Assembly: GCA_050287085.1 (NCBI GenBank)
Contig: JBNKBE010000005.1
Span: forward strand, 96,001 to 160,000
Length of the DNA stretch: 64,000 nucleotides
Reading direction: 5' to 3'
Source of the DNA: Polyangiaceae bacterium
GTDB lineage: Bacteria; Myxococcota_A; Polyangia; Polyangiales; Polyangiaceae
The position numbers were made by a program, and so were the translations under genes. Below, piece after piece: positions 4,165-57,617 of the stretch. Positions within the stretch are counted from its first letter, which is position 1. Each line of letters opens with the position of its first letter. The notes under the pieces are model-generated. The model searched no databases and was not told the DNA's origin. It saw only the letters and a list, made by a program, of their open reading frames with translations.

Positions 4165-5055
4165 TCAGCGCTGCAGGCGTCGGTAGACAGATTCGACCTC
4201 CGCGCTCTTCGTCGCCACCGCCCCGCCCTCCCGGGTCAGGTAGTGCACGCGGGAGTAGCCGGCAGCCGCGATGGCCTCCAGGCACGCGTCCAGTCCGCCG
4301 CCCACGTCCTGCGGACCGTGGCTGTCGTCACCCAACGTGACTGGAATGTCCATCTGACAAGCCCTAGCCAAGATCGTCGGCCCTGGGTAGACCGGACCAA
4401 ATCCGCGACGTACCGGAGCAGCATTGACCTCCAGCAATGCGCCCTGAGCCCGCGCCGCTTCCAGCGCTCGCTCGATGGCCCTCCACACGTTTGGAACGAA
4501 CTCGACGTCGTGCCCCTTGAAGCGACGGATCAGATCGAGATGGCCCAGCACCTCTGGGCGCAGCTCCGTGGCCACCTGCACAACCTGCTCGAAGTAAGCG
4601 ATGCACAACGCGTCCCACCCGCCCGCCTGCTCCGCGAGCTCCTCAGTCAACTCGGGCTTCAAGTCGATCGGTCGCTCGAACACCGTGTGGGCGCTGCCGA
4701 TGATGAAGTCCGCGTGGTAGACGCGCCGCAGGCTAGCGGTGTGCTCTCGCCATCCGTTCGCCGGAATCACCTCCGACTCAAAGCCCACCAACAGCTCGAT
4801 GCGAGATGCAAATTCCGCCTGCAGCCGGCGAGCCTCCGCCATATAACCCTCGAACTGCGCCACGAGCCCCTCCGGCCCAAGATCCTCTTCACCCGGAAAA
4901 AGGTCCATTGTCCGCAGACGCGGACAGTGTTCGGCCAGGCCGTAGGTTGAAAACCCCAGCTCGCACGCTCGCTCTACGACGGCCCGGAGCGCGCCTTTGG
5001 CGTGACGACAGTACTGCCCACTGTGACCTCCGTGGTAGCTGAATAGCGGCGACAT
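4165..5055 (-). CDS. Histidinol-phosphatase, PHP (HisJ/HisK) family
   Basis: SYHGGHSGQYCRHA, GLAEHCPR, VGFESE, IGSAH, GHLDL, LEVNAA, LGDDSHGP metal-binding motifs. Confidence 0.88.
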   Translation of the reverse strand: MSPLFSYHGGHSGQYCRHAKGALRAVVERACELGFSTYGLAEHCPRLRTMDLFPGEEDLGPEGLVAQFEGYMAEARRLQAEFASRIELLVGFESEVIPANGWREHTASLRRVYHADFIIGSAHTVFERPIDLKPELTEELAEQAGGWDALCIAYFEQVVQVATELRPEVLGHLDLIRRFKGHDVEFVPNVWRAIERALEAARAQGALLEVNAAPVRRGFGPVYPGPTILARACQMDIPVTLGDDSHGPQDVGGGLDACLEAIAAAGYSRVHYLTREGGAVATKSAEVESVYRRLQR

Positions 5056-5163
5056 CAAGGCGAATAGTAGACGCAATCACGAGCAGACGGACCGCAAAAT
5101 GCCAGCAAACGCCCCGGCCCTCCCGCTGATCGGCGGCTTGATACTGCGCAGCCGGTCACGCGT

Positions 5164-31691: not shown

Positions 31692-32098
31692 TCGACCTCC
31701 CAGCACAACCACACTCACCTTGAAGAAATGACGACCGAGCCGTCGGTAGCGGCCTGGGCGACGATATTGATGGGTCGCTCACGAGCGCATACCCTGCCCA
31801 GACGCTAGACGGAATAGGGCTCATTGCCGGCCAACGCCACCCCGATCATCGAGCGCGCAATTTGGCGCTCACAATGTCTGTGCCCAGGGTCTACCAACAT
31901 GCATCCGCGAATTTTTTGCGCAGGGCGTTCATCGGGACTACCCGGAGCCGGTCGCCAGGCATCCCGATACCATCCATTCTGCGCCCCACCCCTTCTTGTT
32001 CTCAGGGACGCCAAGGGCGTTGCGTCCAAGGGCGGTCGAAGTGTGAACGACGCAAAGACGGTCCGGTCGGCGCTCTGCCTGTGCTATCGCCCACAGCG

Positions 32099-33229
32099 AT
32101 GACACGGGCTTCGGTGCTCACCCTCACTGCCAGCTTCGCGGCAGGCATGTTCTGTACGGAGGCGTTTTTCCTCCTGCGCCCATCGTCTGATGAGATGGCT
32201 CCCGCAAGCTCTGCACCTAGCGTTGCCCCACAGCCGCTCCGAGAACCCACCATCGAAGAGCATCCCGCCTCCGCCGCGCAGCTGACCTCATTTAGCCCCC
32301 TGCCGGAGGTCTTCGAGCGCGCTTATGTTCAGCCCGATCGCGATGCCATGGCGCTCGGGCGTATGTTCTTCTTCGACAAGCGTTTTTCGCGCAACCACGA
32401 TACGGCGTGCAGTTCGTGCCACCCGCTAGCTCAATACGGCATGGATGGACGCGGGGTGAGCATTGGGCATCTCGGACAGAGCGGAAGGCGCAATGCCCCC
32501 ACGGTGTACAACGCCGGAGGCAGTGGGCTTCAGTTCTGGGACGGAAGAGCAAGGGAAGTGGAGAGCCAAGCGCTGATGCCGCTGCTCGATCCCTTCGAGA
32601 TGGCCATGACCCGGGAGCGCGTGGTGCAAACCATGAAATCCATCCCCGAATACGTGGACGCGCTGCACCAGGTATTTCCGGATGAAGCGGATCCGGTGAC
32701 CTTTCAGAACTTCGGAATCGTAGTGGGCGCGTTTGAACGTGGTCTGGTTACCCCGAGTCGCTGGGACCGCTACCTCGCCGGCGACGAGCTAGCCCTAAGC
32801 GAGGTAGAGAAAGAGGGCTTCGGCATCTTCACCCAGCTGGGCTGCCCAAACTGCCACGCTGGACAACTCATCGGCGGCACCCACATCGAGGTACTGGGAG
32901 CCGCCTGGCCTTGGCCCAACCAGACTGATCTCGGGCAAAACCAGCTGCAGCCCGGCTCTATCAATCTACCCATGTTCAAAGTGGCTAGCCTTCGAAACGT
33001 CGCGATGACTGCACCCTACTTTCACGATGCGTCATCCGATACTTTGGAAGACGCCGTTCGTCGCATGGGGAAACACCAGCTAGGACTCAAGTTGAGCAAG
33101 GAACACATCGACCCCGTGGTAGCTTGGCTCAAGTCGTTGACGGGGGCTCTTCCGCTGCAATACATCGAACCCCCTGCACTACCACCCAGCACCGTCGCCA
33201 CGCCCAAGCCGCAACGTGACGGCTATTGA
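32099..33229 (+). CDS. Diheme cytochrome c peroxidase (bCcP/MauG family)
   Basis: LGRMFFFDKRFS, CSSCH, RNAPTVYN, QFWDGRA, CPNCH, FKVASLRNVAMTAPYFHD. Confidence 0.93.
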   Translation: MTRASVLTLTASFAAGMFCTEAFFLLRPSSDEMAPASSAPSVAPQPLREPTIEEHPASAAQLTSFSPLPEVFERAYVQPDRDAMALGRMFFFDKRFSRNHDTACSSCHPLAQYGMDGRGVSIGHLGQSGRRNAPTVYNAGGSGLQFWDGRAREVESQALMPLLDPFEMAMTRERVVQTMKSIPEYVDALHQVFPDEADPVTFQNFGIVVGAFERGLVTPSRWDRYLAGDELALSEVEKEGFGIFTQLGCPNCHAGQLIGGTHIEVLGAAWPWPNQTDLGQNQLQPGSINLPMFKVASLRNVAMTAPYFHDASSDTLEDAVRRMGKHQLGLKLSKEHIDPVVAWLKSLTGALPLQYIEPPALPPSTVATPKPQRDGY

Positions 33230-36200
33230 ATGATCGAGATCTCGACGGTGCAGTTCGCACTGCAACCATCACTACTGCTGGTGTTGCCGTCGTCACACTC
33301 TTCTCCAGAGTCCACGGTGCCGTCACCGCAGTAGTGCTCTTCCCGACACAATGGGCTGCAGCCGTCCCCCGCGGTCGTGTTACCGTCATCACATTGCTCG
33401 GCACCCTCGACTTTGGAATCCCCGCATACCGGCTCTAGCTTACACGTCGACGAGCAACCGTCACCGCTGGCGTTATTGCCGTCGTCACACTCCTCGGTCC
33501 CCTCTTTCGTCCCATTGCCGCAATATACCTCACGCCGGCACGTCCTGCTGCAACCATCACCGCTTTGCGTGTTGCCGTCGTCACACTGTTCTCCGAGAGC
33601 GCTCTGAGTGACTCCGTCCCCACACACTTCGAGGCGACAAGTGGCGGAACAACCGTCGCCGGACTGAGTCCCGCCGTCATCGCACTCCTCCAACCCGGCG
33701 AGACGACCATCTCCGCACACGCCTTCGCTGCGGCACGTCGCACTGCAGCCGTCTCCACCAACGTTATTGCCGTCATCGCATTCTTCAGACGGCGCCCGGC
33801 TTCCGTCACCACACACCGCTTCAATACGACAAGCCGAGGAACAGCCATCGCCACTGACGTTGTTGCCGTCGTCGCATTCCTCAACTCCTTCCTTGACCTG
33901 ATTGCCACAGAAGGTCTCTAGCAGGCAGCGACTGCTGCAACCGTCGCCACTCGTCGTGTTGCCATCGTCGCACTGCTCACTCAGGTCCACGACATCGTCG
34001 CCACAGACCTCAGCCGTGCAGTCCGCGCGGCAGCCGTCCCCCGCGGTCGTGTTGCCGTCGTCACACTGCTCATTGCCCTCGAGCACTTGATTGCCGCAGT
34101 CTGGCTCGATATGACAGGTCGCATCACAGCCATCACCCACGAGCTGATTGCCATCGTCGCACTGCTCCGTGCTCGCCTGCACGCCATCGCCGCACACGGC
34201 TTCGCTGCGACACGCTGAGCTGCAGCCGTCGCCTGAGACGTTATTTCCGTCGTCGCAGTCCTCCGTCTGGTCCTTGCGTCCGTCACCGCAGAGCTCACGC
34301 GTGCAGTCGGCTCGGCAACCATCTCCCGCCGTCAAGTTACCGTCGTCACATTGCTCCGGCGTCTCGCGAACATTGTTGCCGCATATGGGTGCACTCTGAC
34401 AGCTACTGCTACAGCCGTCGTTGTCTACCGTGTTGCCGTCGTCACATTCCTCTCCTACCTCAACCAGGTTGTTGCCGCACACCGTCTCCAACTGGCAGTT
34501 GGCTCCGCATCCGTCGCCCGCCATCGTGTTACCATCGTCGCAAACCTCTCCCGGATCCCGACGACCGTTGCCACACACTTCGCGCAGACAAACAGAACTA
34601 CAGCCGTCGCCGGAGAGGTTGTTGCCGTCGTCGCATTCCTCAGCACCGTCCCGCTGTCCGTTGCCGCAGAAGGTCTCCAGTTGGCAGTTTAGACTGCAAC
34701 CATCTGCGCTCTCGGCATTTCCGTCATCGCACTGCTCGGCGGCATCCACGATGCCATCGCCGCACAATTCTTCGCTACAGTCCGCGCGGCAGCCGTCCCC
34801 CGGCACCGTGTTGCCATCGTCGCAAGCCTCTCCCAGCTCCACGTCGTCGTTGCCACAAATGGCTTCGCTTACGCATTGGCTGCTGCAGCCATCGCCCGAG
34901 ACGGTATTGCCGTCGTCGCATTGCTCGGCGCCTTCACGTTCCCCGTTGCCGCACACGCTCTCGTCCAGGCAACGTTCGTCACAACCGTCGGAAGGTTCGG
35001 TATTGCCGTCGTCGCACTGCTCGCCCACCTGGACGACGCCATCGCCGCACTCGCAGAGAACAAGCACCGTTACGGTGGCGGTGTCCGTCTCGTTGCCGCC
35101 AAGCACTGCCGTGTAGTCGAAGCGATCGTAGCCGCCGCAGAAGCCATTCGGCGGAGAATACTCGACCGTGTCACCATCCGCGCTGACCACAGCACTTCCG
35201 CCGCGCTCGGTCGCGGTCACAGACAAGACGCCAACGGTAGGATCGGCACAGGTCCCCTCGCTGCGGGTGTCGTTGCTCAACACGTCCACAACATTGTCCG
35301 TACTACCGGACTGGACTTGGATGCGGTCGGGACGTGCTTTCGCTGGCGCGTAGCAGTAGGGCACGGTCGCGCCCGTATTGCATACGGTGCCGGGCGCTCG
35401 ACTGGCGCATTCTGCGTCAGAAGTGCACGACGTCGCAAATAGCTGGCACGGCTCGGACGGATTGCGCGGGCAGATGATGAAAGCCCCACCGTCAATTGCC
35501 GTGGCGGCTGCCGCAGCTTCTTTGGTGTAGCTCTGCACCGGGGTACCGTCGGCCGCTTGGGCTGCGATCAGCACCCCCGGAATGGTGGACTGCCCATAGA
35601 GTGAACCGTCATGACCATAGAAGCGAAACTGAAGATCCGTTGAGCCTGACGGTGTATTGAATACCCCGACCACATCAAATCCAGGAACGGTGAAGATGGC
35701 GTCCAGGGGGTCGCTGCTTGCGGCAGTCCACGACAAGTCCGCGGAGCCAAAGTCGAAACCAAGGGGACTTGAAGGGCTGCGAGGATAGGCGCGGATCTCA
35801 CCACCAGACCTCACCAAGTAGGCACGCCCATCTTCCCCCACGGTCAGGCCGTCAAACTGAAGCGGAAGATCCCCACTCGCCCGAATGGTTCCGTCCACCG
35901 ACACCCATCTCAGAGTCGAACCGGATCCACTGTTCTCCAGAAAGAACCAAGAATGCGAGAACGGATCGTAGGCCGCGCCGTCGATGCCGCCACCATCATA
36001 ACGAACCCTAGGCACCAACGCCGGATCCGGATTCGAACACTGCCCGCTGCCCGGAGTTTCGCCCGGCGCACATAGCTCATTGGTGTCCGGAATGAGAATC
36101 GAACCGTCGAGACAGAGCTCGATCGGTGGCTTGGCCAAGGATTGCTTGTACCCAACGAAGGAGCGCGTGATGGGATCGTAGCTGAGCGCATCCGGCGACA

Positions 36201-39200
36201 CGTTGCTAACGTTGAACTCTCGAATGGCGACCCAGGCAAGCTGGGTAGCACACACGCTCGGAGCGCCTTCGCAGGCGTAGAAGGGCTCGACGGTGCATTG
36301 CGCTGAGCAGCCGTCACCCGCCGCCAGGTCCCCATCATCACACTCTTCAAGCCCGCCGACGTCCCCATTGCCGCAAGGATTGGCGGTGCACGGTCCTCCG
36401 GTTACAGGAATCGTATCGTCGTGCACTTCACACTCATAGCCCCAAACCAGCTGACAAGCGGCATCACACCCTGCACTCTGCCCCTCATCATCACACTGCT
36501 CTGCCCCCTCGATCACACCGTCCCCGCAGACAGTGAGGGAGCATGCGTCACCCGGAACATCGCACTTATAGCCGAGCTCCAGCTTGCAGTCCGCCGAGCA
36601 CCCATCGCCGGAGGTCGGTGTGGCATCGTCATCTTCGCACTCTTCCTCTCCTTCGACCGCACCATCGCCACACTGCGGAGCGCGACAGGCGCCGCCCTCT
36701 GAAGGACAGGCATAGCCAGACTCGACGCGACACGTGATGGAACAACCGTCGCCGGATAGCTCGTTGCCGTCGTCGCACTCTTCCGTGGCCACCGCGATAC
36801 CGTCACCACATTGGGCCGCCACGCACGGCTGCCCCTCGAGCCGACAGTCGTAGCCAGGCTCTACTTCGCAGCTCGCGTCACAACCGTCGGACGGATTGCG
36901 ATTTCCGTCATCACAGGCTTCCGCCGTGTCCTGAATAGCATCGCCGCACTGTTGACAGGGCTGCCCCGGCACTGGGCACTGAAATCCGAGCTCCAACTGG
37001 CAGGTCAGACCGCAGCCGTCGCCCGCCTGGGCGTCTCCGTCGTCACAGGTTTCGCCAAGCTCGACCAGGCTGTTGCCACACTGCGTGCAAGCCGCCCCAG
37101 GTACACCGCAGGCGTAGCCGGGCTCAATGTTCTCGCAGGTGGCGTCGCAACCATCTCCCGCCGTCGCGTTGCCATCGTCGCAAGCTTCCCCCGCTTCGAG
37201 CACGCCGTTTCCGCAACGCTGACACTGCCCGCCCGCGGGGGGACACGTGTAGTTTGGCTCGACGCGATCGCAGCCGTGGGAACAACCATCACCGCTGAGC
37301 AGGTTGCCATCGTCGCAGACCTCAGGCGCCTGCACAATGCCGTCGCCACACTGACGGCAGGGCGTGCCTGGAGCCAGACAGGTGAAGCCTGGGTAGGTGC
37401 CCTGGCATGTGGGCAGGCATCCCTTGCCATCGTCTGGCTCACCGTCATCGCAGACTTCACCTTCCGCGAGCACCCCGTCGCCGCAGACATAGCAATCACT
37501 GCCGGGAATAGCGCAGGTAAAGCCGAGCTCCACCGTACAAGCCGCGTCACAGCCATCGCCGGGGTCGCGATCGCCGTCGTCGCATTCCTCACTGCTCTCG
37601 CGCACCCCGTTGCCACACTGCTCACAAGCCGCACCGGATACCGGACAGCTGTAGCCATCTTCAACGAGCGTACATTCCTGTCCGCAACCGTCGCCATCAA
37701 GGGTGTTGCCGTCGTCGCAGTTTTCGCCGTATTCGACTACCCCGTTGCCACACTTCTGGCATCCCTGCTCGTCGGTGCACGTGTAGCCGTCTTCGATCCG
37801 TCGGCAGTCATAGCCGCATCCGTCGCCCCCCACGCGGTTTCCGTCGTCGCACAGTTCGCCTGCCTCACGCACACCGTTGCCGCACTCGATACACTTTTGA
37901 CCCGGTTGGCCGCAGGTAAACCCTGGTTCGACGGTCTGGCAGTCTCCCGCACAGCCATCACCCGAAGCGGCATTGCCGTCGTCGCAGATCTCACCGTCAG
38001 CCAAAGCTCCGTCGCCACACAAGAAGCAGGTGGCGCCTGGAACCGGACACTGAAATCCGACCTCTAGCTTGCAGCTGGCGTCGCAACCGTCACCGCTTGC
38101 CGTATTCCCGTCATCGCAACCTTCACTGCTCTCGCGAATGCCATTGCCGCACAGCTCGCAAGCAACCCCTGGAACGGGGCAGAATGCCCCAGCTTCAACC
38201 CGTGCACAATCCGCGCTACAACCGTCACCGTCCACGTTGTTGCGGTCGTCACACACCTCGCTGCCCGACAGTCGGCCGTCGCCGCAGCCGCCGCAGGCAC
38301 TCCCGGGCGTGGAGCAGACAAATCCCACTTCAACCACGCGGCAGTCGAAGCGACAGCCATCCCCGCTCACACGATTGCCGTCGTCGCAGACCTCGACCCC
38401 ACTCAGAAGACCATCACCACACAACGTGCACGCCACGCCGCCAACGCTGCAGTCGTAGCCCGGCTGCACACTGGTGCAATCGGCGGCGCAACCGTCCCCT
38501 GGTTGTCGGTTCCCGTCATCGCATGTTTCGTTGGGTTCGATGACGCCGTTGCCACATAGCTCACAGGCTTGACCCGGGATCCAGCACTCATAGTTGCCCT
38601 CCACGCTGCCACAGTCTACCGCGCAGCCATCTCCTGCGACTCGGTTGCCGTCGTCACAAGCCTCACTGCTCTCCACTATGCCATTGCCGCATCCCTCGCA
38701 GGCTGCCCCCACTACCGGACAAGCAAAGCCGGCCTCGACCGCATCGCAGCCCGAGGAACAACCATCTCCGCCTTGCACGTTGCCGTCATCGCAGACTTCT
38801 CCCGTCTCGATGACGCGATTGCCACACCCCGCGCACGACACGCCGGGAAGCGGGCAGGTGTAGCCGGGCTCCACCTCGAGACAGTTGAAAAGACAGCCGT
38901 CACCCGAAATGACGTTGCCGTCATCGCAAGCCTCATGGGCATCTACCTTTCCATCACCGCAGCGCTCGCACAATTCACCGGGTGCCGAGCACCGAAAGAA
39001 CTGTTCGATCGTGCGGCAATCCGCGGCGCAGCCGTCATTTGACCGGGTGTTGCCGTCATCGCAGGCCTCCGCATCACCCAGCTCTCCATCACCACATAGG
39101 TCACAGTCACCCCCTGCTGCTGCGCAGTTGAAGCCCGTCTCTACGAGTTTGCAGTCAGAGCTACACCCGTCGCCGTCGATGACGTTGCCATCGTCACACG

Positions 39201-39600
39201 CCTCCCGACTCTCCCGAATCCCATTGCCACATTCCTCACATTCGACCCCGGCCACGGCACAGTCGAAGCCGCTTTCTAGCAAGCAGGTATCGTCGCAACC
39301 ATCACCATCGAGCGCGTTGCCATCATCGCATTCCTCCCCCGCCTCGAGCACACCGTTGCCACAGGGCCGTCGAAGCCCCCCATCGGCGGTCTGCGCAGGG
39401 GGCGCGTCGTCCGTGTCATCGGGCAGAACCAAGCGGTCGTCCAAGTCGCCCCCAGCGTCGCCCGGAGGCCCGCGACGACCCCCATCTCCCGCGGTCGTCC
39501 CCGCGTCGTGCGGCTCGTCAGCCAGCTCGGGCGCGGAAGAACAAGATACCAACAGGGACAGCATGCCCGCCGCCGAGGAAAGGTAGATGATTCGTCGCAT
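33223..39600 (-). CDS. Giant lipoprotein with myxobacterial cysteine-rich (DUF4215-type) repeats, central globular domain and Ig-like domain
   Basis: 2125 aa; lipobox LLVSC; dozens of CG(N/D)G-x5-E-x-CDDGN-x3-GDGC repeats; DVLSND...YSPP...DRFDYT Ig-like module. Confidence 0.9.
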   Translation of the reverse strand: MRRIIYLSSAAGMLSLLVSCSSAPELADEPHDAGTTAGDGGRRGPPGDAGGDLDDRLVLPDDTDDAPPAQTADGGLRRPCGNGVLEAGEECDDGNALDGDGCDDTCLLESGFDCAVAGVECEECGNGIRESREACDDGNVIDGDGCSSDCKLVETGFNCAAAGGDCDLCGDGELGDAEACDDGNTRSNDGCAADCRTIEQFFRCSAPGELCERCGDGKVDAHEACDDGNVISGDGCLFNCLEVEPGYTCPLPGVSCAGCGNRVIETGEVCDDGNVQGGDGCSSGCDAVEAGFACPVVGAACEGCGNGIVESSEACDDGNRVAGDGCAVDCGSVEGNYECWIPGQACELCGNGVIEPNETCDDGNRQPGDGCAADCTSVQPGYDCSVGGVACTLCGDGLLSGVEVCDDGNRVSGDGCRFDCRVVEVGFVCSTPGSACGGCGDGRLSGSEVCDDRNNVDGDGCSADCARVEAGAFCPVPGVACELCGNGIRESSEGCDDGNTASGDGCDASCKLEVGFQCPVPGATCFLCGDGALADGEICDDGNAASGDGCAGDCQTVEPGFTCGQPGQKCIECGNGVREAGELCDDGNRVGGDGCGYDCRRIEDGYTCTDEQGCQKCGNGVVEYGENCDDGNTLDGDGCGQECTLVEDGYSCPVSGAACEQCGNGVRESSEECDDGDRDPGDGCDAACTVELGFTCAIPGSDCYVCGDGVLAEGEVCDDGEPDDGKGCLPTCQGTYPGFTCLAPGTPCRQCGDGIVQAPEVCDDGNLLSGDGCSHGCDRVEPNYTCPPAGGQCQRCGNGVLEAGEACDDGNATAGDGCDATCENIEPGYACGVPGAACTQCGNSLVELGETCDDGDAQAGDGCGLTCQLELGFQCPVPGQPCQQCGDAIQDTAEACDDGNRNPSDGCDASCEVEPGYDCRLEGQPCVAAQCGDGIAVATEECDDGNELSGDGCSITCRVESGYACPSEGGACRAPQCGDGAVEGEEECEDDDATPTSGDGCSADCKLELGYKCDVPGDACSLTVCGDGVIEGAEQCDDEGQSAGCDAACQLVWGYECEVHDDTIPVTGGPCTANPCGNGDVGGLEECDDGDLAAGDGCSAQCTVEPFYACEGAPSVCATQLAWVAIREFNVSNVSPDALSYDPITRSFVGYKQSLAKPPIELCLDGSILIPDTNELCAPGETPGSGQCSNPDPALVPRVRYDGGGIDGAAYDPFSHSWFFLENSGSGSTLRWVSVDGTIRASGDLPLQFDGLTVGEDGRAYLVRSGGEIRAYPRSPSSPLGFDFGSADLSWTAASSDPLDAIFTVPGFDVVGVFNTPSGSTDLQFRFYGHDGSLYGQSTIPGVLIAAQAADGTPVQSYTKEAAAAATAIDGGAFIICPRNPSEPCQLFATSCTSDAECASRAPGTVCNTGATVPYCYAPAKARPDRIQVQSGSTDNVVDVLSNDTRSEGTCADPTVGVLSVTATERGGSAVVSADGDTVEYSPPNGFCGGYDRFDYTAVLGGNETDTATVTVLVLCECGDGVVQVGEQCDDGNTEPSDGCDERCLDESVCGNGEREGAEQCDDGNTVSGDGCSSQCVSEAICGNDDVELGEACDDGNTVPGDGCRADCSEELCGDGIVDAAEQCDDGNAESADGCSLNCQLETFCGNGQRDGAEECDDGNNLSGDGCSSVCLREVCGNGRRDPGEVCDDGNTMAGDGCGANCQLETVCGNNLVEVGEECDDGNTVDNDGCSSSCQSAPICGNNVRETPEQCDDGNLTAGDGCRADCTRELCGDGRKDQTEDCDDGNNVSGDGCSSACRSEAVCGDGVQASTEQCDDGNQLVGDGCDATCHIEPDCGNQVLEGNEQCDDGNTTAGDGCRADCTAEVCGDDVVDLSEQCDDGNTTSGDGCSSRCLLETFCGNQVKEGVEECDDGNNVSGDGCSSACRIEAVCGDGSRAPSEECDDGNNVGGDGCSATCRSEGVCGDGRLAGLEECDDGGTQSGDGCSATCRLEVCGDGVTQSALGEQCDDGNTQSGDGCSRTCRREVYCGNGTKEGTEECDDGNNASGDGCSSTCKLEPVCGDSKVEGAEQCDDGNTTAGDGCSPLCREEHYCGDGTVDSGEECDDGNTSSSDGCSANCTVEISIIQ

Positions 39601-39827
39601 AGTGAACGCCTGCGACGTCAGAGCGACACACGCAGCGTTCCCTTAAGCGCTAGGTGGAAAGAACTGCGCACTTCCCCTTGGTCGATGACTCAGGGTGTCC
39701 CGTTGATGCACCTCCAGGAAGGCCGTCCCTCGCGACCGTCACAAAGCAACACGCGAACGGGCAGCGATACGGCAGGGACAAGCGCACACGCCCATAAGTG
39801 GACGTCCGGGTCGATAGAGCGGGCCTT

Positions 39828-48378: not shown

Positions 48379-48981
48379 ATGAAAAAGCAGCGACTCGTGA
48401 CTGCACTAGGCGTTCTCGCCGCTCTCATTGCCCTGGGCGCCACCGCGGCGGTGCGCACTACCACGCGCCCCCCATCGCAGGCCTCAGCCGCCGGATCCGG
48501 CTTGGTAGATCAGCGAGGGTCGCCCTTCGCACTGGACCAACTGCGCGGCAAGACCGTGGTGCTGAACTTCATCTTCACTCACTGCCCCGGCATCTGCCCC
48601 ACCCAGACCGCCGCATTGCACCGAGTTCAGCAAGGTCTACCCGATGCGGTGCGTGCTCGCGTTCATTTCACCTCCGTTTCGATCGATCCCGAACGCGATA
48701 CGCCGGCCGCATTGATGGCCTTCGCGCAGCAGCACCGGCTCGATCTCGATCACTGGACCTTTGTGACCGGAACGCGTCAAGAGCTGGCCGCTCTAGCGCA
48801 GCTCTACTCGGCGGAAGCGCTAGCACCGGGGGCCGATCCCCTCGGGCATCGCTCCGAGGTCCGCGTGTTGGACGCTGAGGGACGTCTAGTACAGACCTAC
48901 ACCGGTGTTCCGCTCGACGAGACGCGGCTCACTCGAGAGCTCCAAACGGTAGACCGTCTGTTTACCAAACACGCTGACTGA
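48379..48981 (+). CDS. SCO1/SenC family copper chaperone
   Basis: N-terminal membrane anchor; FIFTHCPGICP (CxxxC), SIDPERDTP, WTFVTG, GHRS histidine. Confidence 0.92.
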   Translation: MKKQRLVTALGVLAALIALGATAAVRTTTRPPSQASAAGSGLVDQRGSPFALDQLRGKTVVLNFIFTHCPGICPTQTAALHRVQQGLPDAVRARVHFTSVSIDPERDTPAALMAFAQQHRLDLDHWTFVTGTRQELAALAQLYSAEALAPGADPLGHRSEVRVLDAEGRLVQTYTGVPLDETRLTRELQTVDRLFTKHAD

Positions 48982-49058
48982 AGGCTCCGCCTATCGTTCG
49001 AGAGTCTGTGGCAACCCGCCGTGGACTCCCTACCCACCGGCAATACGAAAAACCATAC

Positions 49059-52000
49059 ATGGCACGTCGCACTCTCCTCTTGGCCCTGAGTTCGCTGATG
49101 GCGAGCTCAGCCGCCTTCACGGCAGCAGCCCAAACGCTCCCAGTAGCCATTCCCAATCCACCCGATCCGCTGATGGACGGGCTCGCTATCCCCGACGACG
49201 CGGCCAGCGTTGGCATGTGGTCGGAGAGTAAGAGTTGGCCACTCGTTTCAATTCACTCGGCCCTGCTCCCAGATGGCAGCGTGCTCACGTTCGGTTCACC
49301 CGTCGGGCAAGGCGCCCAAGATGGCCGCACCTTCGTCCGTTGGAACCCGTGGACGGGTACGACCACGACGACGCCAAACTCGCAGGGTGTCAACAGCTTC
49401 TGCGCCGCCGGCGTGTTGCAGCCCACGTCGGGTCAGATGCTTATCTCGGGCGGCAACGAGTCGATGTCGAGCACCTTGTTCGACTACCGAACGGGAACGC
49501 CGAATACCGATCCCTCGCAGCTGGCCGCGGACCGCTGGTACGCGACGATGACCATGTTGTCGGACGGCAGGACGCTCATCACCGGCGGCTCTTTCCCCTA
49601 CGCGATCAACGTCTGGCAGAACCCGGACTCGACGCAAAGCCTCGCCGACGTGTCGATGACGCCGGAGATCTACACGCCAGGCGCCGGGTGGAGCAGCCTG
49701 TTTGGAGCCAATAGTCGTACGGCGTTCGGTCCCGACTTCAACCGATGGTGGTACCCACGCCAATGGGTAGCACCCGACGGCAACGTCTTTGGGGTTTCCT
49801 CGGAGAAGTGGTGGCGGCTCGACCCGACGGGGGACGGTGCCATCATCGCCTCGGGCAATTTCAAGACGGGACGGGACGATACGACCCGTCCGAACATCGG
49901 CCCCACATCAACCGCCGTGATGTTCGACATCGGTAAGGTGCTTCAAGTTGGAGGCAATGCCTACACCAATGAACACGACGTGGTTTCGAGTGAACGAGCC
50001 ACTGTATTTGACATCAACAGTGGCAATCCCGTCATCACCGATGTGGCCTCCATGCAGTTCCGTCGCACATGGGTTAACTCCATCGTGCTTCCGACGGGCC
50101 AGGTCGTCGTCACCGGCGGCACACAATTTGGTGACCGCGGCGATCCGTATGCCAACTATCAGGCCGAGCTTTGGGATCCCGACACGGAAACGTTCAGCGG
50201 CCTGGCCAGTGCCAGTGTGATCCGCAACTACCACTCAACGACCATTCTACTCGAGAACGGCGCCATCTTTAGCTCCGGCGGAGGCGTCCCGGGACCCGTC
50301 ACCAACTTCAACTACGAAATCTACTATCCGCCGTACTTGTTCACCGCGGCAAACGGCCCCGACACCCTTGCGCCGCGTCCACAGTTGGTCTCCATCGAAG
50401 GCACCCGCTTTGCCCATGGCTCGAGTTTCGAGGTGGAGCTGGCCGACGGGAGCCCGCTATCACGTGTTGCGTTGATCGGCCTGAGTTCGACGACACACAG
50501 CTTCAACATGGGGCAGCGCTACGTTCCCGCGAGCTTTGCGCAGTCGGGCACCATGCTGACGGTGGAAGCACCCTCCGCTAATCTTGCCCCGCCCGGGTAC
50601 TACTTGTTATTCGCCGTCAACGACGCGGGTATCCCTTCCCGCGGCGTCATCATTGCCATTGCCGAGGGCGGCTGCAGCAACGATACCGAATGTGACGACG
50701 GCAACGACTGCACACTGGATCAATGCACCGACGGGCTGTGTTCATCCACCAATCAATGCACCGACCCCGTCGCGTTCTACCCCTTTGAACAGGGCGGTGA
50801 GGATGCCGCCAATCACGGCAACGACGCTACCCTGCAGGGTGGTGCGTCGATCGTAGCAGGACACAGCGGCAACGCCGTATCAATCGACGGCGGAGCACAG
50901 TACGTCGATCTGCCCGATGGGATAGTGAGCCAGTGCGAGGACTTTACCTTCGCCGCCTGGGTCTATCTCGACGACAATCAGGACTGGAACCGTATTTTCG
51001 ACTTCGGCACCGGTACCGATGTGAACATGTTCCTAACGCCCAAGGTCGGCGGACAGAACTCCGTTCGTTTCGCGCTCAAGACCCCAAGCATCGGCGCCGA
51101 AGAGCAGATCACTTTCGACTATCAGTTTCCGCTCGCTACCTGGAAGCACGTGAGCGTAGTCCTAGAGGGAGACCAGGGTCGCCTCTATATTGACGGAGCC
51201 GAAGTGGCGACCGCGACCATCACCGGCAATCCGATGGAGATGGGGGCCACTGGCAACAACTGGCTCGGCCGCTCGAACTGGCCCGATCCCCAGATGAACG
51301 GGCGCTTGGACGACGTCATCGTCTCGTGCCGTGCCTACACAGGAACAGAAATCGGCGCCCTAGCCGCGCCCTGTACCACCGGAGCAGAGTGCGACGACGG
51401 TGATCCGTGCACCGACGATCTCTGCGCCGACGGCAGTTGCTCGTACGCCGACAACGGAAGCTGTCAACCCTCCGACGATCCGCTCGCGACCTACGCCTTC
51501 GACGCGGGTCCGGGGGCGACCGACGGCAGTGGCAACGGCAACGACGGCGCGCTGATGGGTGGAGCAACACTGGCCGCCGACGGAGTCAGTAGCGGCTCAG
51601 TCGCCCTCAGCGGAGCCAATCAATACGTCGACCTTCCTGATGGAGTACTGGCCTCTTGCAGTGATTTCACTTTTGCGGGTTGGGTACGACTAAACACCAA
51701 GGCCGACTGGAGTCGCATCTTCGACTTCGGCTCCAGCACCACGACGAACATGTTCTTGACCCCCAAGGTGGGTGGTGCCGACACTGTTCGCTTCGCCATC
51801 AAAGTGCCAGGCATCAACAACGGCTTCGAAGAGCAGATATCGGCTCCATTCGCCTTCCCCTTGGGGACATGGACACATGTCGCAGTGGTACTTGACGGCG
51901 ATACGGGGACCTTGTTCATCGATGGAACTGCAGTCGCCACCAACACCATTGCAGGTGACCCAAGCGCGCTCGGTAGCACCATCAACAACTGGCTCGGCCG

Positions 52001-55000
52001 TTCCCAGTACGGTGCCGATCCCTACCTCAACGGCAACCTGGACGAGCTGTGGCTCTCCTGCCGTGCCTATTCGCCGCAAGAGATTGCTGCATTGGCGGCT
52101 CCGGTGTCCAGCTGCGGCGACGCCACGTGCGATGCATCCGAGGATTGCTCGACTTGCCCCGCCGACTGCGGCGCTTGCCCAGAAACCTGCGGAAACGGGA
52201 CCTGCGCTCCTTCCGAGGATTGCTCGACTTGCCCCGCCGACTGCGGCGCCTGCCCAGAAACCTGCGGAAACGGGACCTGCGCTCCTTCTGAGGATTGCTC
52301 GTCCTGCTCCGCCGACTGCGGCGTCTGTCCAAACCCAACCCTGCTGGACGTGGACTTCGCTTCGGGCGCAGCTGGATTCACTTATGTAGACGACGCGTTT
52401 CGAGGGACCAACCAACCCGCCTACGCTTCTGGCGAAGTTATGCCAGGAAATCTACGAATCTCGCTCGGTGGGGTCAACGGAAGCGCGATCACGAACATGT
52501 CCGGGGGTTGGGGCTCGACGTTTGAGCTACCCTATAACGCTACCGTTGATGTGCTGGTGGGATACGCGCTCAACGCCGCCCTCAACTATGAGGACAACGA
52601 GTGCAGCGAAGTCCTGATCAGCGTCGACGGGCAATTGCTCTGGTCAGCTGGCAGAGACTATGCCGCGCAGATCTGCAGTGGAGGCGCTCAGTCAGGCACC
52701 TTCACAGCCACTACCCCCCTGCTCTCCGCTGGCAGTCACACTGTGCTCGTCGGGGGCTTCAACAATCAGAAGACCGAGCTCGCTGAACTGACCACAATCG
52801 ATATCGACGAGGTTCTCCTCGTTGCCGGCGCACCAGAGTGCACGAGCGACTCTGACTGTGATGATCTCGACCCCTGCACCGACGACAGCTGCGGCCTGGG
52901 CTCTTGTGCCAGCGTCAACAACGGCTCTTGTCCGGACACCTGTGGCGACGACCTTTGCGGTAGCGGCGAAGCCTGCGACACCTGTCCAAGCGACTGCGGT
53001 CTGTGCGCGAGCGGCGCTAGCCTCATCGACGCCGACTTCGAGAATGGTGTCCAGGGCTTCCTGTACCAGGACGACGCCTTCCGTGGAACCAATCAACCCG
53101 CCTACGCAAGCGGTTCACGCGTAGCAGGTGATCTTACGATCGCCCTTGGCGGGCTCGACGCGGCAGCCGTGCAGAACATGTCGGGGGCATGGGGCAGAAG
53201 CTTCTCTCTCTCTCGGGCCGCAACTGTGAACATCGCGCTCGACTACTCGCTCACCGCCGCTCCGAATTACGAGGATCCGGAATGCAGTCAAGTGCTCGTC
53301 GCCATTGACGGTCAGTTGGTCGGCGCGGCAGGCAACGACTACGTCGTACAGCTCTGCAGCGGAGGAACACAGTCGGCCGTATTCAATGCCGCAGTCGATC
53401 TGGCGCAAGGCATTCATACGATCACCGTCGGCGGCTTCAACAATCAGAAGACGGAGCAGCCTGAGTCAACCACCGTCGCCATTCACTCGCTCACGGTCAC
53501 AGGACCCGCCCCGGAGTGCAGCGTTGATGCCGACTGCGACGACGGGGATCCTTGCACCGACGACAGTTGCATGGCCGATGCGTGTAGCCACCTGGACAAC
53601 GGCAGCTGCGATCCGGAAGACGTGGCCACCTACTCGATGAATGACGCCGGAGGTAGCACCGCCGCGGACATTAGTGGACACGGTCGCAACGCAACGCTGG
53701 TGGCCGGTGCGACGTTCACGGCACAGGGTCTCGTGGGTGGGGCCGCGGAGCTCAACGGGACGGGTGGCTACGTCGACCTGCCAGACGCAGCGCTCAGTGC
53801 TTGCGACGACTTCACATTTGCCGCATGGGTTTGGCTCGACCAGAATCCCGACTGGAATCGGATCTTTGACTTCGGCAACGACACGAACACGAACATGTTC
53901 TTGACTCCGAAGGTCGGGGGTACCAACGCGCTGCGTTTTGCCCTCAAGGTCCCAGGCAACAACGGTGGTGCAGAAGAGCAGGTTAGCTTCCCCATGACCT
54001 TCCCCCTCAGCACCTGGACGCACGTTGCACTGGTACTGAGCGGCAACACGGGTACGCTATACGTGGACGGCTCACCCGTTGCTTCCAACACGCTCAATGG
54101 CAACCCGTCCGACATGGGCGCCACCGTCAACAACTGGCTCGGTCGCTCGAACTGGCCCGACCCATATATGGACGGACGCTTGGACGACGTTCACATATCG
54201 TGTCGGGCGTTCACTGACGACGACATTGCGCAACTGGTTGCCGGAAGCAGCGATACCGTCTCTCGCCGTAGTCTCTTCGAAACGACCCAGGCAGCCGTAT
54301 CGCAGTTCACTCTCGCAGAAACGCTCGGTTTCGCCATCACGAACGCGGGCCTGAGCGGGGACGCAAACACTGTATATCGTCAGCTCGTCGATAGCTACGC
54401 CAGCGCGCCCGGCAATCTTGCGAGCGCAATCCACTGCGGCGACGAAAGCACAAACGGCGTGCCGACGCTGAACGGGTATCCCATTGCCTGCGACCGCCTA
54501 GAGGCGCAGCAAGTTGACAACCTAGACCAATGGTTCGCCACGGCGCTGGTCAATCGCATCGACCTCACCCCTGCAGACGGCGCGCACTGCGGCAATCAGC
54601 GCATTGCATTTGCAAACAACGCGCCCATCGGAAACGGCCGCATGTTGCTCATCGTAGAGGCTCAAGTGCCCAATCCGAACCCTGTCCAGGGGCGACTGGG
54701 GTGCAAGCCAATCGCCGACTTCTGGAAGAGCCTGGAGTCCGTCAGTGATGCTACCGAGCGCGGTCTTCGCCTGCGCGAGGCCTTTTTGAACGGCGGCGGA
54801 GCTGGCTTCGCTCCCTTCATCAATGCCTTCAATCTGACCCAAGGTACCGGTCAGATCCGAACGAACAACTTCAACGACGAGGACTGGACGTTGCGGGAGT
54901 TCAAGTTCGAAATATCGGGCACGAGCAGTCGCATCATCCCCGGTCCCATGGGGGACGCGCCGCCGGGTGTCCTGTGGAACGATACAGTCAACACCCCAAC

Positions 55001-55457
55001 GGGCGAGGCGTGTCGGGCCAACTTTCTCACGGCGCTCGACGGGCTGCTTACGGATGAACCGGGCGCGATGCACTTCGTGGTCGACGAGGCCTGTCGCGAC
55101 TCCGAGAGTCTGAACGACTTCACCGCTCAGAACTACCCCATGCACCTCTTGGCGGGTGATCCAAACGGATTCCAAGCTGAGTTAGCTACGCGTCTACAAG
55201 GCACTGGACTAACGCCGGTCGACATCGCTACCCGCGCGCGCTTCGCCGGTTCTTGTATTGGCTGTCACCAAGAGTCGCGAGGCAATACCCTCGGCAATGG
55301 AGTTGCCGCGCCCTCGTCTTTGAGTTTCGTGCACATCGAGGAGCGCTTCCTCGAAGATTGCGCCGACGGCCCCTGCTTCCCGATATCGCGAGGTCTCAAG
55401 GACGTATTCCTCCCCTATCGCAAGCAGGTCCTCGACGCCTTCAGCACCATGCCCTAG
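49059..55457 (+). CDS. Secreted multidomain copper radical oxidase (galactose/glyoxal oxidase family) with LamG, Cys-rich and C-terminal CxxCH domains
   Basis: Signal peptide; FCAAG, RWYAT, RNYHS and THSFNMGQR active-site motifs; APPGYYLLF (DUF1929-type Ig); three LamG repeats (WxRIFDFG, NWLGRS); CIGCH near the C-terminus. Confidence 0.9.
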   Translation: MARRTLLLALSSLMASSAAFTAAAQTLPVAIPNPPDPLMDGLAIPDDAASVGMWSESKSWPLVSIHSALLPDGSVLTFGSPVGQGAQDGRTFVRWNPWTGTTTTTPNSQGVNSFCAAGVLQPTSGQMLISGGNESMSSTLFDYRTGTPNTDPSQLAADRWYATMTMLSDGRTLITGGSFPYAINVWQNPDSTQSLADVSMTPEIYTPGAGWSSLFGANSRTAFGPDFNRWWYPRQWVAPDGNVFGVSSEKWWRLDPTGDGAIIASGNFKTGRDDTTRPNIGPTSTAVMFDIGKVLQVGGNAYTNEHDVVSSERATVFDINSGNPVITDVASMQFRRTWVNSIVLPTGQVVVTGGTQFGDRGDPYANYQAELWDPDTETFSGLASASVIRNYHSTTILLENGAIFSSGGGVPGPVTNFNYEIYYPPYLFTAANGPDTLAPRPQLVSIEGTRFAHGSSFEVELADGSPLSRVALIGLSSTTHSFNMGQRYVPASFAQSGTMLTVEAPSANLAPPGYYLLFAVNDAGIPSRGVIIAIAEGGCSNDTECDDGNDCTLDQCTDGLCSSTNQCTDPVAFYPFEQGGEDAANHGNDATLQGGASIVAGHSGNAVSIDGGAQYVDLPDGIVSQCEDFTFAAWVYLDDNQDWNRIFDFGTGTDVNMFLTPKVGGQNSVRFALKTPSIGAEEQITFDYQFPLATWKHVSVVLEGDQGRLYIDGAEVATATITGNPMEMGATGNNWLGRSNWPDPQMNGRLDDVIVSCRAYTGTEIGALAAPCTTGAECDDGDPCTDDLCADGSCSYADNGSCQPSDDPLATYAFDAGPGATDGSGNGNDGALMGGATLAADGVSSGSVALSGANQYVDLPDGVLASCSDFTFAGWVRLNTKADWSRIFDFGSSTTTNMFLTPKVGGADTVRFAIKVPGINNGFEEQISAPFAFPLGTWTHVAVVLDGDTGTLFIDGTAVATNTIAGDPSALGSTINNWLGRSQYGADPYLNGNLDELWLSCRAYSPQEIAALAAPVSSCGDATCDASEDCSTCPADCGACPETCGNGTCAPSEDCSTCPADCGACPETCGNGTCAPSEDCSSCSADCGVCPNPTLLDVDFASGAAGFTYVDDAFRGTNQPAYASGEVMPGNLRISLGGVNGSAITNMSGGWGSTFELPYNATVDVLVGYALNAALNYEDNECSEVLISVDGQLLWSAGRDYAAQICSGGAQSGTFTATTPLLSAGSHTVLVGGFNNQKTELAELTTIDIDEVLLVAGAPECTSDSDCDDLDPCTDDSCGLGSCASVNNGSCPDTCGDDLCGSGEACDTCPSDCGLCASGASLIDADFENGVQGFLYQDDAFRGTNQPAYASGSRVAGDLTIALGGLDAAAVQNMSGAWGRSFSLSRAATVNIALDYSLTAAPNYEDPECSQVLVAIDGQLVGAAGNDYVVQLCSGGTQSAVFNAAVDLAQGIHTITVGGFNNQKTEQPESTTVAIHSLTVTGPAPECSVDADCDDGDPCTDDSCMADACSHLDNGSCDPEDVATYSMNDAGGSTAADISGHGRNATLVAGATFTAQGLVGGAAELNGTGGYVDLPDAALSACDDFTFAAWVWLDQNPDWNRIFDFGNDTNTNMFLTPKVGGTNALRFALKVPGNNGGAEEQVSFPMTFPLSTWTHVALVLSGNTGTLYVDGSPVASNTLNGNPSDMGATVNNWLGRSNWPDPYMDGRLDDVHISCRAFTDDDIAQLVAGSSDTVSRRSLFETTQAAVSQFTLAETLGFAITNAGLSGDANTVYRQLVDSYASAPGNLASAIHCGDESTNGVPTLNGYPIACDRLEAQQVDNLDQWFATALVNRIDLTPADGAHCGNQRIAFANNAPIGNGRMLLIVEAQVPNPNPVQGRLGCKPIADFWKSLESVSDATERGLRLREAFLNGGGAGFAPFINAFNLTQGTGQIRTNNFNDEDWTLREFKFEISGTSSRIIPGPMGDAPPGVLWNDTVNTPTGEACRANFLTALDGLLTDEPGAMHFVVDEACRDSESLNDFTAQNYPMHLLAGDPNGFQAELATRLQGTGLTPVDIATRARFAGSCIGCHQESRGNTLGNGVAAPSSLSFVHIEERFLEDCADGPCFPISRGLKDVFLPYRKQVLDAFSTMP
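52137..52331 (+). repeat. Intragenic 75-bp tandem repeat (~2.6 copies) encoding SEDCSTCPADCGACPETCGNGTCAP
   Basis: Units start at 52137, 52212 and 52287; the first two are nearly identical at nucleotide level. Confidence 0.9.
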
Positions 55458-55500
55458 CCAAGACGGCTGCTAGGGGAGCCGCTACGCCGACGCGCGTAGG

Positions 55501-55538
55501 CCCCACCCGACGCAAGTCGGCGTGGGGTTTGTCTTTTT
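55501..55538 (+). terminator. Rho-independent terminator after the oxidase gene
   Basis: CCCCAC-CCGAC-GCAA-GTCGG-C-GTGGGG stem with GNRA loop, followed by TTTGTCTTTTT. Confidence 0.85.
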
Positions 55539-55676: not shown

Positions 55677-55841
55677 CTTATTGCGAACGTCCGAACGTGG
55701 CACGACATTACACGGAACACTCGACGCGCGGACGACCTAGGGCCAGTCTTTGAAGCCCGACCGACTGCAGTGGTTGGCTCTAGCTGAAACGTGCCGAGAG
55801 CCGGCTTGCCTGCACTGCACCCGCGCATCGCAAACACCTCC

Positions 55842-57617
55842 ATGTTTCAGAAGATCCCCCGCCGCGTCGCCGACTCCCCTCTTGCTTCCTCGCCCATTCG
55901 TCGCAACGACGGCATGTCCGTGGAACCTGCGGCCCTGGCCCTTTTCTGTTGCGCGCTACTTCCTGGTGCCATCGCGTGTAGTGATGGCGGGGCTGCAGTC
56001 GCGGGGCATGGGGGAGCCACCTCTGGCGCGGGCAGCGACGCCGCAGGAATGAGCGCCGCGGGACCACTGGAGCCCCTCACTGCTGGTGCGACGGCGTCAG
56101 AGGCAGGTGCTGGTAACCCTTCGTCGGCAAGTGGCGGCACGCCCTCCGGTGGTGAAACGAGTTCTGATGATGTCGCAGGTGCACCCTCCAGTGGCGAAGG
56201 TGGCGCAAACCCGGGAGCGTCCCAGGGCGGTGGCAACGCAGGTGCGGACGAGGCGGCGGGTGCAGCGGGTGAGGCAGCTACCCCTACGGACGAACCCGCT
56301 CCCGAGCTCCCCGCGGGTGTGCTCAAACTGTCGCCGCAGCCCGGCGCGAGCGCCGCTTGCTTGGATCCCGCTCTGATGATGCGCTTCGAGGACCGAGTGC
56401 GTCTGGCAACTCGCGGCCGCTTTCTGCTCTACGAGGAGGGACAAGCCACGCCCGCCGCGTCGGTGGATTTGTCGCAGGACAACGTCCTTGTCAATGTCGG
56501 CGGTTCCGAGCTGCGAGTTCCATTGCCGGTATTCGTGGCCGATAGCGGTGCCGACTATCGCACGGGGACCGAAGGAGACGCCGTATTCGTCACCTTCGCC
56601 AGCACGCTCACCCCTGGGCGTAGCTACCGCGTTGAACTCGAGGGCACCCCCATCATCAACAGTGCCGGAGACGCGCCGGTACCGGCTGAAAGCTTGAGCT
56701 GGACCTTCACCACGCAAACCAGTGCCCCTTCCGGCTCGCAGCTAGCAGTCGGCTATGAGCCCGGCGCAGATTATTGCACTCTACAGGCAGCTATAGATGC
56801 GGCCTCGAACAACACCACCTTAGACATCGGTGAGGGGGTCTATCACGGCTTGTTACGGATGAACGACAAGCAGGGCATCGTCCTGCGCGGCTCCGACCGG
56901 AACCGTACACGCCTGGTCGGCATCAACAACGAGAACCTGAACGGTGGCACTCGCTCCCGCCCGCTGGTCCTGGTTCAGTCCGCATCGGATCTGACCATCG
57001 AGCGAATGACAATCGCCAACCTAACACCTCAAGGTGGTTCGCAGGCTGAGGCGCTGGCGCTGATGGACTGCGAGCGCTGCGTGGTTCGGAATGCGACGAT
57101 CGAAAGCCTGCAGGATACTCTGCTGTGGGAGGGTCGAATCTACGCTGAAGACTGCCTGATTGTCGGCAACGTCGACTACATCTGGGGTCGTGGTGCCGCG
57201 TACTTCTCCCAATGCGAGATGCGCACGGTGGGACGCAAAGGGTATAATCTGCAAGCGCGCAACGCGGTGGGCGCAGCGGGCTACGTGTTCGTCGATTCAA
57301 AACTCACGGCTGACCCCGGGATCAACGGCGACGTGCTCGCGCGAATTGATGTCAGCGCCTACCCCGGCAGCCAGGTGGCCTACGTCGACTGTGAGATGGG
57401 CAGTCACATCGACCCCAGTGGCTGGCTCGTCACGGGTGGCGGCTCCACGAATCAACTGAGATTCTGGGAGTATCAAAGCCGAACGCCGCAAGGCGCTCTC
57501 GTCGACGTGAGCCGGCGACTGCCCGGCTCACGCCAACTATCTGACCAGGAAGCCGCCCAACTGCGAGACCCTGCCAACGTCTTGGGTGGCTGGACGCCCC
57601 CCACAGGCGGCCAGTAA
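55842..57617 (+). CDS. Pectinesterase-family (CE8-like) lipoprotein with Ig-like domain and low-complexity linker; start uncertain (55791/55842/55914)
   Basis: AIAC lipobox-like motif; CTLQAAID, QAEALAL, LQDTL, GNVDYIWG, GYVFVDS, LARID. Confidence 0.85.
   Translation: MFQKIPRRVADSPLASSPIRRNDGMSVEPAALALFCCALLPGAIACSDGGAAVAGHGGATSGAGSDAAGMSAAGPLEPLTAGATASEAGAGNPSSASGGTPSGGETSSDDVAGAPSSGEGGANPGASQGGGNAGADEAAGAAGEAATPTDEPAPELPAGVLKLSPQPGASAACLDPALMMRFEDRVRLATRGRFLLYEEGQATPAASVDLSQDNVLVNVGGSELRVPLPVFVADSGADYRTGTEGDAVFVTFASTLTPGRSYRVELEGTPIINSAGDAPVPAESLSWTFTTQTSAPSGSQLAVGYEPGADYCTLQAAIDAASNNTTLDIGEGVYHGLLRMNDKQGIVLRGSDRNRTRLVGINNENLNGGTRSRPLVLVQSASDLTIERMTIANLTPQGGSQAEALALMDCERCVVRNATIESLQDTLLWEGRIYAEDCLIVGNVDYIWGRGAAYFSQCEMRTVGRKGYNLQARNAVGAAGYVFVDSKLTADPGINGDVLARIDVSAYPGSQVAYVDCEMGSHIDPSGWLVTGGGSTNQLRFWEYQSRTPQGALVDVSRRLPGSRQLSDQEAAQLRDPANVLGGWTPPTGGQ

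Follow-up and report, generated by a model that had tools for sequence, protein, structure and literature searches.

A copper radical oxidase fused to a predicted monoheme c domain in a Polyangiaceae bacterium

We describe a two-gene locus of a Polyangiaceae bacterium (assembly GCA_050287085.1, contig JBNKBE010000005.1) that encodes a SCO1/SenC copper chaperone and a very long protein in which a copper radical oxidase of family AA5 shares a single chain with a C-terminal (CT) domain predicted to bind heme c, and which we tentatively read as an oxidase coupled to a peroxidase-like module. The stretch analyzed, hereafter the window, comprises 64,000 nucleotides (contig positions 96,001 to 160,000, forward strand), and unprefixed nucleotide coordinates refer to it. 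Both genes lie on the + strand. The SCO gene (48379-48981, 200 aa) is followed, after a gap of 77 nt, by a 2,132-aa open reading frame (ORF) that stays open from its ATG at 49059 to position 55457 and whose product is identical to a database entry (P0241). An earlier note on this DNA, made from the letters alone, had described five catalytic residues, a SCO gene 77 nt upstream and a C-terminal domain with one CIGCH motif, and the coordinates of all three check in frame; it had omitted the region of about 1,200 residues, composed of LamG, Cys-rich and beta modules, that separates the oxidase from the C-terminal domain.

To judge from its sequence, the AA5 domain (49206-50660, +) is a copper radical oxidase with a complete catalytic site, and is predicted to oxidize alcohols or aldehydes. 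The residues Cys115 (49401), Tyr161 (49539), Tyr391-His392 (50229-50234) and His480 (50496) occupy the ligand positions of galactose oxidase in a phmmer alignment to 9g8h (E 3e-42), and all five are invariant in 61/61 aligned AA5 domains. The layout is that of a Kelch propeller followed by an E-set domain, with PF09118 scoring above its cut-off, PF07250 below it and the phmmer match to galactose oxidases spanning residues 50-534. Against the GlxA equivalog model NF052501 the domain scored 122.7 bits, below the cut-off of 800. The product of the upstream gene (48379-48981, +) matches PF02630 (E 1.2e-23, 84 bits) and combines a hydrophobic N-terminal stretch with both elements of the copper site, a CxxxC motif (CPGIC) and a downstream His at +88, in a spacing shared by eight of the nine relatives checked (L107 was left unresolved by the script).

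The CT domain (54249-55454, +; 402 aa) holds the only CxxCH of the 2,132-aa protein, the sequence CIGCH at residues 2066-2070 (55254-55268, +), which in the family takes the form CxGCH. Searches with this domain against Pfam, NCBIfam and PDB sequences returned no match, the cytochrome families of Pfam and NCBIfam included, and those against the ESM Atlas returned unnamed clusters only. Nor is it a di-heme CCP/MauG module, as it carries one CxxCH and lacks PF03150. The family to which it belongs comprises hundreds of secreted, mostly myxobacterial proteins, with 286 near-length and 214 longer matches, and 936 cluster representatives at E<=0.001. The earlier note had proposed conservation of CxxCH as a check, and the motif proved invariant in every aligned row: it is found in 119 of 120 close homologues, the single miss covering 68% of the query (119/119 aligned rows), and, among the distant homologues, 126 of 134 have it, those columns being empty in the other eight (126/126 aligned rows). 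The His is kept together with both Cys in homologues down to about 33% identity, and the Cys pairs 1985/2012 and 2101/2106 vanish jointly in distant members, as disulfides would, while CxGCH retains its His. As an argument for a predicted heme site this conservation is stronger than shuffle frequencies, a CxxCH arising by chance in 0.3% of cases when the CT domain is shuffled and in 2.4% when the entire protein is (5,000 shuffles each). The genome also encodes heme c maturation functions, with one match for CcmE and three for PF01578 over cut-off. Because CxGCH is invariant where other Cys pairs drop out, and because CcmE and three PF01578 genes are present, a covalently bound heme c in CT is very likely, in agreement with the heme c module that the earlier note had proposed and with the predicted fold discussed below.

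Conservation in the CT family extends beyond the heme motif. In the distant set R1848, E1867, R1934, R2059 and R2121 are conserved at 99-100%, and R1848 and R1934 sit on predicted strands of the AlphaFold model; Trp is also among the invariant residues of the family. Besides the motif His, the only His columns in that set are H2092 (87%) and H1792 (81%), and there are zero conserved Met columns; a fixed sixth heme ligand is therefore not evident.

The fold of CT was examined with AlphaFold models of the whole domain (pLDDT 95) and of its residues 88-379 (pLDDT 94). Foldseek yielded zero PDB matches at E<=0.001 for either model. A wide fold search of 48,161 chains with the whole domain placed the P460/c'-beta proteins 8brk, 6hiu and 7s5o at ranks 1-3 (Z 4.1, 3.9 and 3.9), with 6amg at rank 5 and 2je3 at rank 10, and a second search of 48,161 chains with residues 88-379 returned 8brk, 7s5o and 6hiu first (Z 4.8, 4.7 and 4.6), with a root-mean-square deviation (rmsd) of 3.6-4.5 Å over 109-115 residues. 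The P460/c'-beta alignments take in 109-123 residues of targets of 135-156 residues and reach the CxGCH helix; most unrelated chains in the second search end at the sheet, short of that helix. These matches carry weight because one small heme c family heads both lists and because its alignments reach the CxGCH helix, although the two models share sequence and are therefore not independent tests. By-eye comparison places the strand motifs of CT in the P460/c'-beta order. The Pfam scan gave no match to PF16694 in CT. No Lys column exceeds 62% in the distant set, and the position equivalent, by eye, to that of the P460 cross-link Lys (V1866) is Phe in 108/130 rows, a residue resembling F61 of c'-beta. 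Since the cross-link position is mostly Phe and no Lys is conserved anywhere, a true P460 is unlikely. Within the P460/c'-beta superfamily itself there is little sequence homology, according to the accessible part of PMC11928373. On the models we consider it probable that CT adopts a remote P460/c'-beta-like fold, short of family membership. As a separate observation, the window genome contains a gene with tandem double PF16694 domains, cytochrome P460-like (G000 C18:116621-117430).

Most CT proteins stand alone, with lengths of 430-1,170 aa, and a lipobox-like N-terminus is found, by a loose pattern, in 119/206 of these. Among the 46 CT proteins scanned with Pfam, stand-alone members carry CBM2, CBM9, CBM96, ricin, malectin and F5/8 modules, a pattern like that of secreted enzymes, and CT also occurs with RCC1, disintegrin-like, FG-GAP and Ig domains. 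Four of the 366 CT proteins with the motif exceed 900 aa, and AA5 is the only catalytic partner recognized among the 46 scanned. The earlier note had suggested examining the co-occurrence of the C-terminal domain with AA5 domains and SCO genes; SCO does accompany the AA5 oxidase, but most CT genes occur without AA5. The window architecture recurs at three genome loci (L005, L022 and L033) and in one database protein (P0121), and the fused CT domains show identities of 62-70%. In a 56-row tree the five of them, together with the stand-alone P0001, make up one clade (Shimodaira-Hasegawa-like approximate likelihood ratio test, SH-aLRT, 99) within the stand-alone family, from which we conclude that the AA5-CT fusion arose once.

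A further property of the CT family is a tail of the form T[LIV]GG/SG...H with a terminal His, which closes 236 of the 239 close homologues with the motif and ends 94-212 residues past CxGCH; in the distant set 59/134 proteins end in His. This tail might supply a heme ligand, act as a latency cap or serve in export as a signal. The window protein lacks it and 2/5 fusions keep it, and the idea that fusion goes with loss of the tail was rejected on account of those two.

The relatives of the oxidase place this fusion in a wider context. Among the best 120 of 441 long AA5 homologues (1,172-3,731 aa, a length window that favors fusions), 114 carry a YVTN propeller and a di-heme CCP/MauG module, 4 carry CT and 2 neither; a survey without the length filter found AA5 matches in 26/301 genomes of the family. 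All ten AA5 loci fetched at 50-54% identity are CCP fusions, with SCO directly upstream in eight of the nine for which upstream DNA is available, and a metagenome scan for the AA5 subclade of the window recovered eight loci, five of them ending at a contig edge, with SCO directly upstream in 8/8. That this oxidase lineage is coupled to heme and to SCO is thus borne out, di-heme modules accounting for the heme side in most of those 120 homologues. Three loci (L179, L181 and L183) encode complete SCO and AA5-LamG genes without a heme module. L179 is 73% identical, and about 8 kb of downstream DNA in its locus contain no CT or CCP match; the downstream DNA available amounts to 1.3 kb for L181 and 0.6 kb for L183. 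A heme partner may lie elsewhere in those genomes.

In a 44-row tree, which retains roughly one in three of the 66 CCP rows and in which long outgroup branches were flagged, the LamG-bearing AA5 proteins form a clade of their own (99/98), apart from the CCP clade (100/97). Within the former, L183 and L181 are the earliest branches, and L179 is nested in a 100/100 group of CT fusions. A first tree had suggested that CT directly replaced the di-heme module, an idea dropped when the heme-less LamG relatives were added and branched earlier. Because such heme-less relatives with SCO, AA5 and LamG exist and branch earlier, SCO appears as the near-constant partner and CT as a later gain, which was probably lost again at least once (L179). 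On the sequences compared, the AA5 oxidase of this lineage does not need a fused heme and CT is an accessory.

Several other arrangements were seen among AA5 relatives. In genome G171 an AA5-CT fusion with SCO (L022) coexists with an AA5-di-heme fusion (L108), and since both are present the two are not redundant there. Among AA5 proteins more distant than those of the CCP-fusion loci, L116 (G159; ORF 4616-7627, minus strand) joins SCO and AA5 in one frame of 1,004 codons, a direct chaperone-oxidase fusion, and in L100:3-2675 and L101:1724-5134 multicopper-oxidase and cupredoxin domains precede AA5, providing a third type of fused redox partner. Two same-clade AA5 proteins (P0482 and P0492) show odd composition and repeated LamG-like units, without CxxCH.

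The remaining features of the window ORF are all on the + strand. A predicted signal peptide (49059-49130), judged by eye and by comparing the N-termini of homologues, is likely of the Sec type because a twin-Arg is not conserved among them. Three LamG (concanavalin A-like) domains, corresponding to three PF13385 stretches and delimited by their repeat limits, occupy 50760-51368 (flanked by Cys-rich spacers), 51477-52100 (56% identity to the first) and 53622-54242 (58% identity to the first). Between the second and third lie two copies of a beta domain of about 165 aa without a Pfam or NCBIfam match over cut-off (52329-52841 and 53019-53519, 55% identical), which is possibly an unclassified binding module; two more homologues of it occur elsewhere in the window genome (C1 and C7). 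That genome contains a single AA5 and a single CT.

Downstream of the ORF, a likely intrinsic terminator (55500-55538, +) consists of a bulged, GC-rich hairpin (55500-55528) with a GCAA loop and a T-rich tail. The 88-nt stretch around it folds with a z of -3.28, an equally good fold arising in 1/200 shuffles, so that folding supports the terminator with which the earlier note had closed the unit, although a strict terminator scan did not list the bulged hairpin. A promoter scan of the locus gave matches only at chance level. The next gene, beyond the terminator (55791-57617, +), encodes a pectinesterase-domain protein (PF01095, E 4e-20) that was not seen as a conserved neighbor. About 15 kb upstream of SCO, a frame with two CxxCH (31724-33226, +) shows similarity to di-heme CCP/MauG (E 4e-12). 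Another very long frame of the window (33226-39642, minus strand; 2,139 codons) has a lipoprotein-like start and Cys-rich repeats.

The reading that we prefer, though tentatively, is that of an exported oxidase-peroxidase couple, in which the oxidase feeds H2O2 to an optional, peroxidase-like monoheme module whose single gain was independent of that of the di-heme type. In this scheme SCO would supply the copper of the AA5 domain, and the latter would oxidize an alcohol or sugar, yielding an aldehyde and H2O2; the LamG modules would hold the pair at a glycan or cell surface; and the tethered CT, predicted to contain one heme c and an open polar face, could use the H2O2 in a peroxidase-like manner, either to oxidize a nearby substrate or to remove the H2O2, with re-oxidation of the Cys-Tyr radical as a possible side benefit. 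All chemical steps of this scheme are inferred; what the DNA and its comparison show is that the domains are fused, that the five copper-site residues are present, that SCO is linked, that CxGCH and certain Arg, Glu and Trp residues are invariant, and that the fusion has one origin within a family of stand-alone secreted proteins. A c'-beta protein that has a distal Arg reacts with H2O2 to give a ferryl species and oxidizes guaiacol, as described in the accessible text of PMC11928373, and by analogy with the N. europaea c'-beta such a reaction of CT with H2O2 seems to us about as likely as not. We regard as doubtful the bolder reading that CT represents a large unrecognized branch of secreted beta-sheet monoheme peroxidases, and the fusion a second, independent oxidase-peroxidase chain that feeds itself and reactivates its own radical.

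A number of observations weigh against the oxidase-peroxidase couple. The fusion is rare: CT is joined to AA5 in 3/74 genome loci, the distinct fusions total five with the window and P0121, and clustering the neighborhoods of the 74 CT loci brought out kinases and local synteny and no recurrent redox or oxidase partner. Three relatives are complete without any heme module, and between AA5 and CT lies a stretch of some 1,200 residues made up of LamG domains, Cys-rich spacers and unclassified beta domains. The fold match is weak, with an rmsd of 3.6-4.5 Å and with Z scores of 3.9-4.8 that are tied with, or within 1 Z of, those of unrelated sheets, and the heme-facing residues of CT were assigned by eye. 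Alignment of CT by hhalign with 29 P460-like sequences, both whole and minus the insertions, matched only the CxxCH stretch and scored 11.9 outside it, against up to 16.8 in 40 column shuffles, leaving P460 kinship unconfirmed. A P460/c'-beta fold does not in itself imply a peroxidase, because the members of that superfamily mostly bind NO or CO or oxidize hydroxylamine, as far as the accessible part of PMC11928373 describes them.

The earlier note had favored, as one role of the C-terminal domain, activation of the oxidase in cis. On such a reading a heme oxidized by H2O2 would withdraw a single electron from the resting Cu(II)-Tyr-Cys site or aid formation of its cross-link, which would make the enzyme self-activating. 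Copper radical oxidases do require one-electron activation, and in the accessible parts of PMC9770985 and PMC12951238 fungi are described as using a dedicated tandem peroxidase of low peroxidase activity; maturation of Streptomyces GlxA depends on Sco and DtpA, according to what is accessible of PMC4736821; and two unrelated heme c modules have been fused to this AA5 lineage, other AA5s being fused to multicopper or cupredoxin domains (L100 and L101). Against a dedicated activator stand the three heme-less relatives, L179 with no heme module in its roughly 8 kb of downstream DNA, and the occurrence of nearly all CT proteins without any oxidase. The activation described in the accessible text of PMC12951238 also needs a specific contact surface, yet here the two domains are far apart in the chain. 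The claim of a needed or dedicated activator is thus not sustained, and we consider such a role unlikely; of the functions that had been proposed for the domain, consumption of H2O2 would appear to fit better than activation of the radical.

It is similarly improbable, in our estimate, that the two domains are merely displayed together, CT performing its own chemistry (binding or turnover of NO, CO or hydroxylamine, or another oxidation) with no coupling to the oxidase. Modules are freely shuffled in secreted myxobacterial proteins, as the association of CT with RCC1, disintegrin-like, FG-GAP, Ig and CBM domains illustrates, the fusion was gained a single time and probably lost in L179, and the nearest fold relatives bind gas or oxidize NH2OH in the accessible account of PMC11928373. 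On the other side, AA5 is the only catalytic partner recognized in the 46 CT proteins scanned, the AA5 lineage is otherwise tied to heme peroxidase modules, and the fusion has been maintained across proteins whose CT domains have diverged to 62-70% identity.

In cellobiose dehydrogenase a cytochrome domain accepts electrons, and by analogy CT could be a six-coordinate cytochrome that draws electrons from the reduced copper site. The His that ends the tail of close homologues would offer a possible sixth ligand, as would H2092, which is His in 108/124 distant rows and Met in 3. However, the tail is missing in the window protein and two other fusions, H2092 is replaced by Gln in 27/119 close rows, the many invariant Arg look catalytic rather than carrier-like, and in P460/c'-beta hemes the CxxCH His is the sole protein ligand, as stated in the accessible portion of PMC11928373; we therefore hold an electron-accepting CT to be very unlikely. 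A CT without heme, in which CxGCH would form a disulfide or bind a metal within a secreted fold rich in Cys, could be argued from its ten Cys, the majority of which are invariant among close homologues, and from the absence of a matching Pfam or NCBIfam cytochrome family. It is more improbable still, given a His that stays invariant with both Cys in remote homologues and the fact that the only beta-sheet heme c family heads both fold searches.

As biocatalysts, copper radical oxidases are useful but depend on an added peroxidase and must endure the H2O2 that they make. A natural chain joining oxidase and heme would be a template for self-sufficient copper radical oxidases, with heme-less relatives such as L179 as a built-in control for the heme module. 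If CT is indeed a threefold-enlarged relative of P460/c'-beta, it would carry this small fold family into chemistry that takes place outside the cell on a glycan tether. The finding loses weight because the fusion is rare and dispensable and the fold score weak, and gains weight from the size of the CT family. The literature searched, which did not cover subscription papers or supplements, contained no described oxidase of this architecture, as the earlier note had supposed, no account of an AA5-heme c fusion or of the CT family and no paper in which cytochrome P460 and galactose oxidase are named together; likewise, no description of an AA5-di-heme CCP/MauG fusion was found in the searches.

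Compared with known systems, the logic at this locus is familiar, a copper radical oxidase, Sco and a heme peroxidase having been known as separate proteins; what is new is the architecture, with the oxidase and the predicted heme module in one chain, and a heme family without prior assignment. Galactose oxidases (9g8h and 1gof) have the same propeller and E-set and all five copper-site residues, to which the window protein adds about 1,600 residues ending in the predicted heme c domain, and a linked SCO gene. The Streptomyces GlxA/Sco/DtpA system, as presented in the accessible part of PMC4736821, likewise combines a copper radical oxidase, Sco and a heme protein able to use H2O2, but the window AA5 is not GlxA, and its heme partner is fused and not a DyP. 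The fungal Perox-AlcOx pair shares the genetic tie between oxidase and heme partner, and the accessible texts of PMC9770985 and PMC12951238 describe that partner as able to oxidize the resting site, as a member of the peroxidase-catalase superfamily with a gene of its own, and as required for activity on those substrates that were tested; the heme partner of the window oxidase is fused, predicted to be c-type, unrelated in fold and absent from some close relatives. The mtoX-SCO1/senC-mauG clusters, in the accessible part of PMC5739008, similarly bring together a copper oxidase, SCO and a heme c maturation or peroxidase-like partner, but the methanethiol oxidase differs in fold and cofactor (proposed to be tryptophan tryptophylquinone, TTQ) and its di-heme MauG is not fused to it. 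In the P460/c'-beta proteins (8brk, 7s5o, 6hiu, 2je3 and 6amg) a five-stranded antiparallel sheet leads into a C-terminal helix with the CxxCH, and a sheet and helix in this order are predicted for CT, which is about three times larger, with two large insertions and disulfides, and has neither a PF16694 match nor a conserved cross-link Lys. A further parallel is provided by the bacterial fusions of AA5, YVTN propeller and di-heme CCP/MauG, a sister AA5 clade (46-55% identical) with SCO upstream and a heme c module near the C-terminus; CT is non-homologous to that module, has one CxxCH and no PF03150, is not accompanied by a propeller, and was gained later by a separate, LamG-bearing clade.

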